From IMG/VR virus record IMGVR_UViG_2623620503_000006: a stretch of DNA of 6,254 nt; one strand, written 5' to 3'. Positions 3,112 through 5,840 of this stretch are shown piece after piece. Position 1 is the first letter of the stretch. Each line of letters begins with the position of its first letter. This DNA is from a virus (taxonomy: Duplodnaviria > Heunggongvirae > Uroviricota > Caudoviricetes). The position numbers and the translations under genes were made by a program. A model generated the notes under the pieces. The model did not search any database. It saw nothing but the letters and a program-made list of their open reading frames with translations, and was not told where the DNA came from.

Positions 3112-4959
3112 TCAGACCACGCTGATGCCCAGCGCCTGTTTCTTAATCACCATAACCTGCACATCGCTGGCAAACGTATCCGGCGGAATATCTGCCGAAT
3201 GCCGTGTGGACGTAAGCGTGAACGTCAGGATCACGTTTCCCCGACCCGCTGGCATGTCAACAATACGGGAGAACACCTGTACCGCCTCGTTCGCCGCGCC
3301 ATCATAAATCACCGCACCGTTCATCAGTACTTTCAGATAACACATCGAATACGTTGTCCTGCCGCTGACAGTACGCTTACTTCCGCGAAACGTCAGCGGA
3401 AGCACCACTATCTGGCGATCAAAAGGATGGTCATCGGTCACGGTGACAGTACGGGTACCTGACGGCCAGTCCACACTGCTTTCACGCTGGCGCGGAAAAG
3501 CCGCGCTCGCCGCCTTTACAATGTCCCCGACGATTTTTTCCGCCCTCAGCGTACCGTTTATCGTACAGTTTTCAGCTATCGTCACATTACTGAGCGTCCC
3601 GGAGTTCGCATTCACACTGCCACTGATATCCGCATTTTTAGCGGTCAGCTTTCCGTCCGGTGTCAGGGAAAAGGCCGGAGGATTGCCGCCGCTGGTAATG
3701 GTGGGGGCCGTCAGGCGCTTCAGGAACACGTCGTTCATGAATATCTGGTTGCCCTGCGCCACAAACATCGGCGTTTCATTCCCGTTTGCCGGGTCAATAA
3801 ATGCGATACGATTGGCGGCAACCAGAAACTGGCTCAGTTTGCCTTCCTCCGTGTCCTCCATGCTGAGGCCAATACCCGCGACATAATGTTTGCCGTCTTT
3901 GGTCTGCTCAATTTTGACAGCCCACATGGCATTCCACTTATCGTTGGCGTCCTTCCACTCTTTCGAAAACTCCTCCAGTCTGCTGGCGTTATCCTCCGTC
4001 AGCTCGACTTTTTCCAGCAGCTCCTTGCCGAGATGGGATTCGGTTATCTTGCCTTTGAAAAAATCCAGGTAACCTTCCGCATCATCGCTCGCCCGACCGA
4101 CGGCCTCCACGAATGCCGATTTGCCAACGGTGTTCACACTGCGGATATAAAAGTAATAATCATGGCCCGGTTTGATATTGATACTGGCGGCTATCCAGTA
4201 CAGCGCCGTACCAAGATAACGCGCGCTGGTTTCAACCTGTCTGATATCCGCAATCTGCTTTTCCGAGAACCAGAACTCAAACTGTACCGTCGGGTCATAA
4301 ACGGCAAGATGCGGCGTGGCGGTTATCTGAAAATAGCCCGGCGTCAGCTCAATCCTCGACGGTGCTGCCGGTGCGGCAATCCGGAACGATACCGACGCCG
4401 GATCGCCCTGCTGCCCCCACGCATTTACCGCCCGGACTGTCAGCCTGTAGTTCCCCAGCGCCAGTTGCGTGAAGCGGTATGTGGTTTCCGTCGTCCGGGC
4501 CGTGCTGACCAGCCGCTCACTGCCGTCGTCCGCTGTTACGGTCAGACGGAGCAGGAAACTCACGCCCTTCACCACCTTCGGTGTGTCCCATCGCGCCAGC
4601 ACCTGATATTCCCCGCTGTCTGCAGTGACTTCTGCGGTCAGGTGCTGCACCGCTGGCGGCGTGACACCATTCACCGTGCCACTCTGTTCGCCGTCAAAGT
4701 GCGCCCCGTTATCCACGATGGCCTCTTTTTCCGGCACATGCTGCACGGCGGTGATCCGGTCATTCCCCATGCTGTTCATGATGGCAACCTGAAACGGCAG
4801 TGTTTCCCATTGCCCGGGAGTATATGAAGACTCTTTTGGCAGATAATAATGCTGATCAGCCCACTGAACTGTCGTCAGTGGTACCGGAATATTGAGAGAT
4901 ACAAGCCCTGTTGCTATCGCACCGGCTGCATTAGCTGCCTTCTGTGCGTCTGAAATCAT
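3112..4959 (-). CDS. J: chimeric ORF: terminase large subunit (gpA-like) N-terminal ~70 aa fused in frame to the C-terminal ~545 aa of tail tip/host specificity protein J
   Basis: From the ATG at 4959 (the track start at 4962 is a TTG) the product begins MISDAQ...[41 protein letters not shown]. This aligns by eye with the lambda gpA N-terminus (...TAVEWADANYYLPKESAYQEGRWETLPFQRAIMNAMGSDYI). After roughly residue 70 (about nt 4740-4756) similarity to gpA stops and the product continues into a J-like C-terminal region ending ...[17 protein letters not shown]. The start overlaps the 3' end of the upstream TerS gene by 29 nt, as the Nu1/A overlap does in lambda. It could equally be regarded as a deletion-generated pseudogene. 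Confidence 0.8.
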
Positions 4960-5479
4960 CAATCCACCCGCCTACGTTCTCACCAGCTTTAGCTGCAACG
5001 TTGGAGGCTTTTGCGATTTCAGTTTTCACCACATCAAGGTGTGACGGTGAAATATCCGGATATTTACGCTGTAATGTCAGCGGCACACGTACAAGTATCC
5101 CCGAAATCTCCTGTGCCACACGTTGCAGAATGAAGGTAAACAATTCCGTTTCCAGTACCAGCCCTTCTTCGCGGGCATTTTTCAGTTCCTGTGCATCAGC
5201 CTGTGCTTTTGTGAGTCGGTAGCGCTCATAGTCAATGGTGCCGGGTTGTAAATCTGATTCCGCAGCCGCACGCAAATCCTCGGTCTCTTTGCGGAGTTTT
5301 TCGTTTTCAATATCGGCTTCGCGCTGCGCATACCACTGAATTGCCATGGCGGTATCAAATACAGATTCAACCCCCTTACTACCACCAGAGACACAAGAGA
5401 GCCCCTGAGACTGCCAGCGTTCAATCGTTCGTGGATCCACGTTGAAAATTTCCGCGAGCTTCTTTTTATTAACCTTCAT
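4931..5479 (-). CDS. nohA: terminase small subunit (lambda Nu1 / NohA family), 182 aa
   Basis: ATG at 5479..5477 gives [27 protein letters not shown]..., homologous to the lambda gpNu1 N-terminal winged-HTH (MEVNKKQLADIFGASIRTIQNWQEQGM...), with conserved ...[18 protein letters not shown]... and ...[26 protein letters not shown]... blocks. The track ORF starts 6 codons earlier at a TTG. The gene lies immediately downstream of the cos site, as in lambda. The symbol is given as a family label (Nu1 homologue). Confidence 0.9.
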
Positions 5480-5502
5480 AAAACATTTCCATATCAAATG
5501 CA

Positions 5503-5608
5503 GGGTCCGACATGGAAGTGCTCAAAAACGTCTTTTTCGGGCACTTTCATGTCGGACCTTTTACGGATGTGATTGATGAAAAAACAATGAGTTATACACG
5601 AGAAGTAC
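5503..5608 (-). promoter_or_regulatory. cosB-like region: three R-like repeats (putative TerS binding sites) sharing a TGTCGG core
   Basis: Plus 5503-5520 (ggtccgacatggaagtg) and plus 5542-5558 (cactttcatgtcggacc) are 17-bp inverted copies with one mismatch. A third, weaker copy (gcgtgtcggtac on the minus strand) lies at about 5594-5606. On the minus strand their order and orientation (direct, inverted, direct) and their distances from the putative cosN (about 60-75, 110-125, 147-164 nt) mirror the R3, R2, R1 arrangement of lambda cosB as recalled, but the repeat sequence differs from the lambda CGTTTCC-type repeat. The AT-rich tract between the R3-like and R2-like copies may be an IHF-type bend site. 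Confidence 0.5.
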
Positions 5609-5655
5609 CGACACGCTTTTTCCCGAAAAATTTTCATAAATAGCGAAAATCCGCG

Positions 5656-5667
5656 CCGCTGCCGCCC
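5656..5667 (-). other. cosN-like cohesive-end site (putative terminase nicking site)
   Basis: The minus strand reads ACG GGGCGGCAGCGG CGCGGATTTTCGCTATTTATGAAAATTTTTCGG. The flanks match the lambda cos junction as I recall it (ACG GGGCGGCGACCT CGCGGGTTTTCGCTATTTATGAAAATTTTCCGG), while the last 5 nt of the 12-mer differ at 4 positions. Confidence 0.65.
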
Positions 5668-5682
5668 CGTGGCAGACCACCC

Positions 5683-5699
5683 CACCGGAAGGACCCGTA
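5683..5699 (-). other. cosQ-like element
   Basis: The minus strand reads TACGGGTCCTTCCGGTG about 20 nt upstream of the cosN-like 12-mer. This closely resembles the lambda right-end sequence TACGGGTCCTTTCCGGTG that contains cosQ (recalled from memory). Confidence 0.45.
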
Positions 5700-5840
5700 C
5701 AAATAGAGTTATTATTAATTACATTTACAGTAGGAATGATGTACATCATTGAAACACCATTCAGTCATATACCGACAGCATTCGGTGTTGCACTTCATAA
5801 CTCTGCGACTACGGTTATAAAAGCATTGGCTACTTTTGCC

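Follow-up and report, generated by a model that had tools for sequence, protein, structure and literature searches.

A lambdoid prophage remnant with a phage 21-type cos site and an intact terS

The DNA analyzed here (the window) is one entire draft contig of 6,254 bp, bounded by repeats, and it appears to be a late-region remnant of a lambdoid prophage with the packaging specificity of phage 21. We consider it very probable, and the best explanation overall, that this is an ordinary, recently decayed lambda-like E. coli prophage. By sequence comparison the window equals the prophage at potB in ARS-C101 minus exactly 17,040 bp. The integration site, the total element size and the absence of a second cos were read from relatives, outside the source genome. 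The features are collected in Table 1.

Table 1. Features of the 6,254-bp window
Feature	Position	Strand	Details
IS3 right end	6133..6254	-	terminal inverted repeat TGATCCTACCCACG plus the transposase gene's 3' end; reaches the contig edge; co-directional with terS
Non-coding spacer between IS3 and cos	5697..6132	.	perfect palindrome with 16-nt arms at 6022-6058
cosQ, GGGTCCT (packaging termination signal)	5690..5696	-	exact 7-mer; aligned to the phage 21 R4/cosQ region
cosN nicking site	5651..5670	-	12-nt cohesive end GGGCGGCAGCGG at 5656-5667; conserved CG dinucleotides on the flanks
cosB, phage 21 type	5503..5615	-	R3 5600-5615; I1-like IHF site 5579-5596; R2 5542-5558 (inverted); R1 5503-5518
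terS (Nu1/gene 1 homologue), intact, 182 aa	4931..5479	-	Pfam Phage_Nu1, PHROG, identity to phage 21 gp1
Chimeric ORF TerL(1-69)::J(586-1132), 615 aa, in frame	3112..4959	-	junction 4753-4755
lom (Ail/Lom outer-membrane protein), intact	2430..3050	-	Pfam Ail_Lom 1.1e-53
stf side tail fibre gene, full length, 774 aa	41..2365	-	Pfam phage_tail_N 8.7e-75, Phage_fiber_2, Collar; 774-aa gene call

Origin of the window by a 17-kb deletion

The ARS-C101 prophage, which adjoins potB and has a full TerL together with portal, protease, capsid and tail genes, matches the window in two segments that stand 17,040 bp apart. Positions 4753-6254 of the window contain no mismatch in 1,502 bp (100% identity), and positions 1-4755 are 99.92% identical. 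Base-by-base mapping against the ARS-C101 TerL and the J gene of a K-12 lambda-type prophage showed that the deletion junction is a 3-bp microhomology, ATC. The deletion removed all the head genes and the tail genes from Z through the first half of J, while the C-terminal 547 residues of J, lom (its DNA 99.9% identical to the K-12 lambda-type prophage) and full-length stf are still in the window. Thus the earlier note, which held that all structural genes had been lost, was right about the head genes and most of the tail genes, but not about the end of J, lom or stf. The contig ends right after the stf stop codon; in ARS-C101, VG48B2 and XJ34, stf is followed by tfa and potB.

At the other edge, the IS3 end is 100% identical to that of ARS-C101, where a 1,258-bp element with the annotation IS3 family transposase has a target duplication of 3 bp (ATT). 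The identical insertion is found in VG48B2 and XJ34. The history would have had two steps. IS3 would have inserted 466 bp upstream of cosN, and later a single illegitimate recombination at the 3-bp microhomology would have removed 17,040 bp between TerL codon 69 and J codon 586, taking with it the ATPase and nuclease domains of the terminase, all the head genes and most of the tail genes. On this history cos and terS would have survived by lying just beyond the deletion endpoint, with too little time since the event for mutations to accumulate.

Because the cos/terS side has no mismatch in 1,502 bp with the intact relative, the deletion must be very recent, and we attribute the intact state of TerS to this recency rather than to maintenance. 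Nothing points to selection for the retention of cos and terS. Indeed, the intact parent prophage persists in another strain with this side unchanged base for base. After a recent deletion, one would by default expect a prophage remnant to have an intact terS next to a cos, and the arrangement should not be taken as a sign of a satellite lifestyle. We regard the window as a well-resolved case of lambdoid prophage decay through one microhomology-mediated 17-kb deletion, of little importance beyond annotation.

Since the window is a 6.25-kb, repeat-bounded contig from a draft assembly, the TerL-J junction might instead be a chimeric join with no real deletion behind it. We find this hardly credible: a misjoin by k-mer overlap would need more than the 3 bp that the two sides have in common there, the contig was recorded in 2 samples, and comparable deletions with other endpoints occur in this prophage, at this locus, in the complete genomes VG48B2 and XJ34. 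The relatives carry this prophage integrated at the potB/potC junction, and VG48B2 and XJ34 both have the same IS3. VG48B2 has a fusion of TerL at about codon 200 to J at about codon 372, together with a further deletion that runs from the C-terminus of J into lom, and in XJ34 residue 140 of TerS is joined to the 3' end of stf. Together these differing deletions make a decay series. The VG48B2 element measures 27,758 bp between 14-bp direct repeats; int and xis are still there, as are cI/cro-like genes, Q and lysis genes. Both VG48B2 and ARS-C101 have Q, holin, lysozyme, bor and tfa along with lambdoid early genes. Compared with VG48B2, the J segment of the window differs by 1.6% and the cos side is nearly identical, and the two deletions differ by 1,035 bp, in frame. 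It is equally possible that the deletion in the window is nested inside a VG48B2-like deletion and that the two arose as independent events or through later recombination.

The cos site and the terminase genes

The earlier note had placed a cos site and TerS at 4931-5700, and profile searches together with alignment to phage 21 bear this out, with a complete cosQ, cosN and cosB and an intact TerS. Over 740 nt, the cos region shares 87% of its nucleotides with the annotated cos of phage 21 (E=0), a match far beyond chance, and all its subsites lie in phage 21 order on the minus strand. R3 and R2 equal the annotated phage 21 sites exactly and R1 has 2 mismatches; the stretch from cosN to R3 aligns without gaps, and the R1/R2 inverted repeat was recovered independently. 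The cohesive end GGGCGGCAGCGG lies between ACG and CGCGG. These flanks and bp 1-7 are the same as in lambda and phage 21, and only bp 8, 9, 11 and 12 depart from their GGGCGGCGACCT. Such variation in the cohesive end's right half is common and tolerated, while cosQ is highly conserved among lambda-like phages (PMC4669245). The gap between cosQ and the cohesive end is 22 nt, compared with 23 nt in phage 21, DLP12 and Qin.

The same cosN variant adjoins an intact TerL in ARS-C101 and in C311, and it is common to all 17 informative IMG/VR contigs. In every one of these 17, TerL follows TerS, being full length in 14 and reaching the end of the locus in the other 3. Taken together, the cohesive end, cosQ and tripartite cosB indicate a lambda-like cos that belongs to the phage 21 specificity class.

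TerS starts at an ATG (MKVNKK...), although the listed ORF begins further upstream, at a TTG at 5497. It matches Pfam Phage_Nu1 (PF07471) with E=2.6e-83 over profile positions 1-163 of 164 and the PHROG terminase small subunit with E=1.6e-65, and it is identical to phage 21 gp1 at 171 of 182 residues (94%). Its recognition helix, RTIERWQS, with residues E20 and S24, is the same as in phage 21, and the C-terminal 42 residues, the TerL-binding region, differ from phage 21 at 1 position. By contrast, the lambda-type NohD and NohA share only 52-53% identity with TerS. With its full-length profile match, N-terminal winged-HTH and C-terminal TerL-binding region, the protein is a Nu1-family small terminase. 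It has the same sequence (100% identity) as WP_000867509.1, the TerS of the intact ARS-C101 and C311 prophages.

The loss of TerL proposed in the earlier note holds for the catalytic domains only. Codons 1-69 of TerL persist (start ATG at 4959), fused in frame to J codon 586. The PHROG terminase large subunit match is confined to residues 1-76 of the chimeric ORF, and Pfam J-protein domains span residues 94-616 of the 616-aa ORF that is read from an upstream TTG. Pfam and PHROG searches detected no ATPase or nuclease domain in the chimeric ORF. Consequently TerS and what is left of TerL are not expected to form a functional terminase holoenzyme, and the element is unable to package itself.

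Both TerL-J fusions of this lineage, in the window and in VG48B2, are in frame, an outcome with a chance of about 1/9, and this double in-frame state could hint at selection on the chimeric ORF. The N-terminus of gpA reportedly binds Nu1, as credited to Frackman in 1985 and Wu in 1988, and the TerL(1-69) stub presumably corresponds to this TerS-binding region. TerS and the stub, which is identical to the N-terminus of phage 21 gp2 at 61 of 69 residues, might then titrate or mis-assemble the terminase of an infecting 21-type phage and act as an anti-phage decoy, with an outcome analogous to that of Rpp, Ppi and TerI. Systems that target terminase do exist (PMC6739421; bioRxiv 10.1101/2025.02.27.640495), and the stub is in frame in two independent variants. 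Nevertheless, packaging interference of this kind is extremely unlikely. Two in-frame fusions are no great surprise at about 1/9, the exact fusion protein occurs on one contig only, the window itself, the junction positions vary among the relatives, and XJ34 lacks the stub and part of terS. In addition, a promoter/terminator scan of 4800-6254 found no terS promoter and no independent promoter for such a function, the signals being no more than expected from shuffled sequence. Pfam and PADLOC scans of the spacer ORFs, TerS and the chimeric ORF for defence families gave only two hits: TerS matched mad1 below the threshold (E = 0.0031; none of the matched stretches passed alone), and a Pfam Ig_2 match fell far short of the cut-off.

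The small ORFs between cos and IS3 had no Pfam or PADLOC match, and a counterpart of the DUF3950 genes ylcI/ynfO of K-12 was not found among them. Scanned against Rfam at E<=1, the entire window returned only a chance isrG match inside stf and nothing in the cos-IS3 spacer.

A helper phage and a lone cos

How this cos would behave with a helper we infer from precedents. The earlier note had suggested that a helper phage could package DNA from this locus, an idea that holds in principle, although productive packaging is unlikely given one cos and the unit size. In the helper/passive-prophage assay of Feiss, helper terminase initiates at the cos of a repressed, integrated prophage; a cos21 substrate yielded 1.24 packaged chromosomes per induced cell with a 21-specific helper versus about 1e-4 with a lambda helper, and such packaging needs two cos sites and shows a lambda versus 21 specificity of more than 1,000-fold (PMC4669245). 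By these precedents, the cos in the window is probably still a competent initiation site for a 21-specific terminase supplied in trans. We rejected the idea that the retained TerS is what enables packaging, because this cosB should be recognized only by a 21-specific terminase, whose helper carries its own TerS.

A helper terminase would be expected to bind R3, R2 and R1, nick cosN and translocate towards terS, stf, tfa, potB, potA, pepT and phoQP. Cos terminases require a second cos (PMC6687093), and on this need the earlier note was correct. Following its suggestion to look for a second cos and for the prophage boundaries, we searched VG48B2, the closest complete genome, and found no second cosN-like site (<=4 mismatches in 20) between 35 kb upstream and 59 kb downstream of cos; the boundaries there are the 14-bp direct repeats described above. 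Because there is no downstream cos at headful distance, packaging that began here would not terminate and would leave dead-end filled heads.

Excision and replication of the element would place cos sites about 27.7 kb apart, a monomer being 57%, and a dimer 114%, of the lambda length. A lambda-size head accepts roughly 38-51 kb, limits reportedly set out by Feiss et al. in 1977 and by Feiss and Siegele in 1979. Neither form fits, the monomer being too short and the dimer too long.

In O157 Sakai, defective prophages are packaged, and sometimes transferred, by co-resident prophages, and the terminase-defective Sp4 was packaged, most likely, according to the authors, by the terminase of Sp14, which has an identical cos (PMC2669165). 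For this reason some mobilization of the element in the window is conceivable. A co-resident or infecting 21-type phage might package the excised and replicated element, or the adjacent chromosome, much as happens with cosmids, Sakai Sp4/Sp14 and cos-type islands. The cos is complete, and intact prophages of the matching class are common: TerS and TerL occur together at 94-100% nucleotide identity in at least 20 complete E. coli genomes, and there are also 17 IMG/VR contigs. Excision might still occur, since VG48B2 retains the int, xis, cI/cro-like, Q and lysis genes named above, and the assembly break at the tfa end would fit the presence of further lambdoid elements in that genome; the Sakai and Feiss systems supply precedents (PMC2669165, PMC4669245). 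Even so, we judge it unlikely that the remnant is mobilized in practice. The unit of about 27.7 kb suits a lambda-size head neither singly nor doubled, VG48B2 has no second cos within reach, and the resident TerS would be redundant with that of a helper. Furthermore, the contig is unbranched across terS and the junction, as would hardly be expected if the source genome held a second, near-identical copy of cos-terS-terL, and the relatives show progressive loss, including that of terS in XJ34, rather than conservation.

It is highly unlikely that the lone chromosomal cos serves as a fixed terminase entry point for a co-resident or infecting 21-type phage. Packaging would then proceed in one direction through potBA, pepT, roxA, phoQP and purB towards icd, and occasional cos-independent cutting would create a low-frequency, site-anchored hot-spot of transduction. 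If true, this would amount to a cos-phage form of lateral transduction, with a dead prophage as its seed. Lone cos sites of phage 21 specificity do exist in E. coli chromosomes; matching terminases could in principle cut them, and they are worth bearing in mind for virome read pile-ups beside prophage remnants.

Comparison with known systems

The likeness to cos-type satellite islands proposed in the earlier note does not survive comparison of the features tested. Like the window, the cos-type PICIs (EcCICFT073 and relatives) have a cosQ and cosN similar to those of lambda-like helpers and need TerL and capsids from a helper, but they lack phage-type cosB R boxes, and next to cos they carry Rpp, which heterodimerises with the helper TerS (PMC6739421, PMC9026076). 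Of the PICI hallmarks that we tested, none was found. Instead of a cosB distinct from that of the helper and free of phage R boxes, the window has three phage 21-type R boxes; the neighbor of cos is, by its Pfam match and its identity to phage 21 gp1, a full-length phage TerS rather than Rpp; and instead of a small island without lysis or virion genes and with its own int, regulator and primase-replicase, the window holds the tail-fibre gene stf, lom and part of J, while its relatives VG48B2 and ARS-C101 have the whole lambdoid early and lysis region.

The Feiss dilysogen assay and Sakai Sp4/Sp14 resemble the window in that the chromosomal cos of a terminase-deficient element could be used by a lambdoid terminase of the same cosB specificity (PMC4669245, PMC2669165). 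Their substrates differ in having two cos sites a genome length apart, as tandem prophages or near-full-size excised concatemers, whereas the window shows one cos and its unit is probably about 27.7 kb.

Phage 21 (M81255, OL657228) shares with the window 87% nucleotide identity over cos and gene 1, identical R3, R2 and cosQ, and the position of I1. The window departs from it in a cosQ-cosN spacer that is 1 nt shorter, 1 extra nt between R3 and R2, the four changed base pairs of the cohesive end, and a TerL truncated after codon 69.

The cos-terS remnant is best matched with the known defective lambdoid prophages of the DLP12/Qin type. DLP12 (cos-nohD-aaaD'-tfaD) and Qin (cos-nohA-stfQ), both cryptic prophages of K-12, have a complete cosQ/cosN/cosB followed by a Nu1-family terS, as in the window. 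There, too, TerL survives as an N-terminal stub (aaaD') or is missing altogether, tail-fibre genes follow directly at the deletion, and, as in the lineage of the window, a lysis, bor and DUF1398 module lies upstream. Unlike the phage 21-type window with its GGGCGGCAGCGG, however, they have lambda-type cosB R boxes, a lambda-type Nu1 and the cohesive end GGGCGGCGACCT, and the deletion in the window is much more recent, with 0 mismatches to its intact relative. We considered whether DLP12 and Qin might themselves be of phage 21 type and rejected this, as the alignments are lambda-type; they are architectural analogues of the window rather than matches in specificity.

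The cos and terS region

The minus strand carries every sizeable gene of the window, which is the entire contig JYHP01000106.1 of draft assembly GCA_000954045.1, with flanks known only from relatives. The earlier note had described a complete cos and an intact TerS at 4931-5700. This interval frames terS, cosB, cosN and cosQ accurately, and both elements were confirmed, with all cos subsites present and 171/182 TerS residues identical to phage 21 gp1.

Features of the window, with the evidence for each
Feature	Position	Strand	Evidence or remark
IS3 right end	6254-6133	-	100% match to ARS-C101
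Non-coding spacer	6132-5697		no Rfam match for its palindrome/hairpin region; small ORFs without Pfam match
Complete lambda-like cos	5696-5503	-	alignment with phage 21 and exact-match mapping
cosQ GGGTCCT	5690-5696	-	alignment and exact match
Cohesive-end 12-mer	5656-5667	-	alignment and exact match
R3	5600-5615	-	identical to phage 21
I1-like IHF site	5579-5596	-	alignment with phage 21
R2, inverted	5542-5558	-	identical to phage 21
R1	5503-5518	-	two mismatches vs phage 21
terS, small terminase gene	5479-4931	-	Pfam Phage_Nu1 2.6e-83
Chimeric ORF, 615 aa	4959-3112	-	residues 1-69 TerL N-terminus, remainder J
lom	3050-2430	-	Pfam
stf, side tail fibre gene, full-length (774 aa)	2365-41	-	Pfam and gene call

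The closest characterised relative of this cos is that of phage 21 (87% nucleotide identity over 740 nt), whose GenBank annotation was used to place every subsite. The alignment is gap-free from cosN to R3, and the cosQ-cosN spacer (5668-5689) is 1 nt shorter in the window. The cohesive end is GGGCGGCAGCGG, compared with GGGCGGCGACCT in lambda and phage 21, and differs at bp 8, 9, 11 and 12. According to Feiss et al., natural variation at bp 7-12 is common and has little effect on nicking, while cosQ and the cohesive end's left half are conserved; N15 varies at bp 9 and 12, and Gifsy-1 at 8, 9 and 11 (PMC4669245). The variant GGGCGGCAGCGG adjoins intact terminase genes in the prophages of E. 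coli strains ARS-C101 and C311 and is present in 21 IMG/VR contigs. TerL follows TerS in 17/17 IMG/VR contigs with sufficient downstream sequence (full-length in 14, reaching the locus end in 3). Across most of the cos/terS region, no isolated phage in the phage collection exceeded ~87% identity. Annealed to an end from lambda or 21, a virion end of this lineage would have four mismatches.

The recognition helix of TerS, RTIERWQS, is that of phage 21, including residues 20 and 24, which are reported to take part in packaging recognition and in discriminating lambda from 21 (PMC4669245). The C-terminal region, corresponding to the part of lambda TerS that binds TerL (PMC6739421), differs from phage 21 by one residue. 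Given the helix match and an identity of only 52-53% to the lambda-type NohD and NohA of K-12, we predict that the packaging specificity is that of phage 21.

A public gene call places a 43-aa ORF at 5512-5643 (+), spanning cosB from R2 to R3. It matches no family, and most likely the terminase-binding sites were miscalled as a gene. Between cos and IS3 lies a perfect palindrome (6022-6058; 16-nt arms TTATAGAAGTCCTTCA / TGAAGGACTTCTATAA, loop of 5 nt), 75 bp from the IS3 end, and by eye we observed two more hairpin-plus-T-run motifs on the + strand, near 5845-5885 and 5975-6015.

Probable origin by deletion, and decay at potB in relatives

Among 5,426 complete E. coli genomes, the cos/terS side of the window (4753-6254) is 100% identical (0 mismatches in 1,502 bp) to the ARS-C101 prophage, which adjoins potB and has TerL, portal, protease, decoration, capsid and a full tail gene set. 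A second segment of this prophage, lying 17,040 bp further along, matches the J-lom-stf side (1-4755) at 99.92% identity. The two sides of the window join where codon 69 of TerL meets codon 586 of J, with ATC alone in common. These alignments indicate that the window is an ARS-C101-type prophage minus one 17,040-bp deletion by illegitimate recombination, and the lack of mismatches in 1,502 bp indicates that the event was very recent. The junction is unlikely to be an assembly artefact, because just 3 bp are common to both sides, two samples are on record for the contig, and analogous deletions occur in complete genomes.

The loss of TerL and of all structural genes, as claimed earlier, is partial: most of both is gone, but a 69-codon TerL stub is kept, fused to the C-terminal 547 residues of the tail-tip protein J, and stf remains. 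The J C-terminal part, lom and stf (1-4755) also share 99.9% identity with the lambda-type prophage found in J53, NCM3722 and similar K-12 strains; the sharp mosaic boundary between lambda-type J-lom-stf and phage-21-type cos/terS pre-exists in the intact ARS-C101 prophage.

The IS3 (1,258 bp, 3-bp target duplication ATT; 13381-14638 of the ARS-C101 locus, L002) was likewise already in that prophage. It sits between the bor/DUF1398 region and cos (window 6133-6254) and points the same way as the late operon; late transcription therefore has to read through it before arriving at terS.

The potB-site prophage with the same IS3 bears other deletions in the complete genomes VG48B2 and XJ34. In VG48B2 (locus L001), TerL(1-~200) is joined in frame to J(~372-) (22642-25152). 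A second deletion (22430-22642; equivalent to window 2615-3455) runs from the end of J into lom and takes out the receptor-binding C-terminal end of J together with the N-terminus of lom. The J segments of VG48B2 and the window share only 98.4% identity, which suggests either that the events were independent or that a different lambdoid prophage recombined later. In XJ34, TerS codon 140 is fused out of frame to the final ~150 nt of stf. Because the same prophage at potB bears differing deletions, retention of cos and terS is one stage of several rather than a design under conservation. Of the three fusions, two preserve the reading frame (69::586 in the window, ~200::372 in VG48B2); since both TerL'::'J fusions would be in frame by chance about once in nine, this may be meaningless and we draw no conclusion from it.

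Possible packaging by a helper phage

The earlier note had suggested helper-dependent packaging from this cos. In a dilysogen assay, helper terminase acts on integrated, repressed prophage DNA, and a cos21-initiated passive chromosome was packaged at 1.24 per induced cell by a 21-specific helper vs ~1e-4 by a lambda helper (PMC4669245). In O157 Sakai, the terminase-defective Sp4 was packaged, according to the authors most likely by the Sp14 terminase, the cos of Sp14 being identical (PMC2669165). From these precedents it is reasonable to infer that a matching helper could initiate at the window cos, and matching prophages are common in complete E. coli genomes and IMG/VR contigs. The sole terminases expected to recognise the window cosB are 21-specific and bring their own TerS, so the resident terS adds nothing.

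A promoter scan around terS found no promoter of its own for the gene. The lack of a promoter also argues against an interference role, in which the stub TerL(1-69), which corresponds to the TerS-binding end of gpA (lambda TerL), might sequester TerS. Also against it, the one PADLOC match, to mad1 and for TerS, stayed below threshold, the junction differs among relatives, and the fusion protein occurs on one contig only.

Cos terminases require a second cos to finish (PMC6687093), in support of the need for one raised earlier. No cosN-like sequence (allowing 4 mismatches in 20) was found in VG48B2, the complete genome closest to the window, over a span reaching 35 kb upstream and 59 kb downstream of its cos. 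If excised at its 14-bp direct repeats (CACCTTCTTATTCA) and replicated, the VG48B2 element would present cos every 27.8 kb. For the window version we estimate a unit of ~27.6 kb by taking the right arm from ARS-C101, subtracting 17,040 bp and adding the left arm from VG48B2; a monomer would then be ~57% and a dimer 114% of lambda length. Lambda heads accept roughly 78-105% of lambda length, a well-established range (Feiss et al. 1977; Feiss and Siegele 1979), and by this estimate neither form falls within the limits. A helper would nick cos and fill heads one way, towards potB, potA, pepT and phoQP, without termination, and the filled heads would be dead-end particles. Thus, although initiation is plausible, the lack of a second cos in VG48B2 and the unit size make transferable particles from the window cos unlikely. 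Helper packaging is right in principle, not specific to this locus, and independent of the retained TerS.

Comparison with satellites and K-12 prophages

The likeness to cos-type satellite islands drawn in the earlier note did not hold. Cos-type PICIs have cosQ and cosN and lack the phage R boxes, and their Rpp, encoded beside cos, forms a pair with the TerS of the helper that recognises the cosB specific to the island (PMC6739421, PMC9026076). In contrast, the window has a phage-type cosB and, as neighbouring gene, a full phage TerS, and its relatives keep Q, holins, lysozyme, bor, tail-fibre genes and lambdoid early genes; on the features tested, the window does not belong with the cos-type PICIs.

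The same arrangement is seen in two cryptic prophages of K-12, each downstream of a lysis, bor, DUF1398 module: cos-nohD-aaaD'(TerL stub)-tfaD in DLP12, and cos-nohA into stfQ in Qin. We rejected a 21-type assignment for these two, since alignment gives a cos and Nu1 of lambda type, whereas those of the window are of phage-21 type. The window is a new and, judging from its alignments, very recent case of a well-known kind, the defective lambdoid prophage with cos and nu1.
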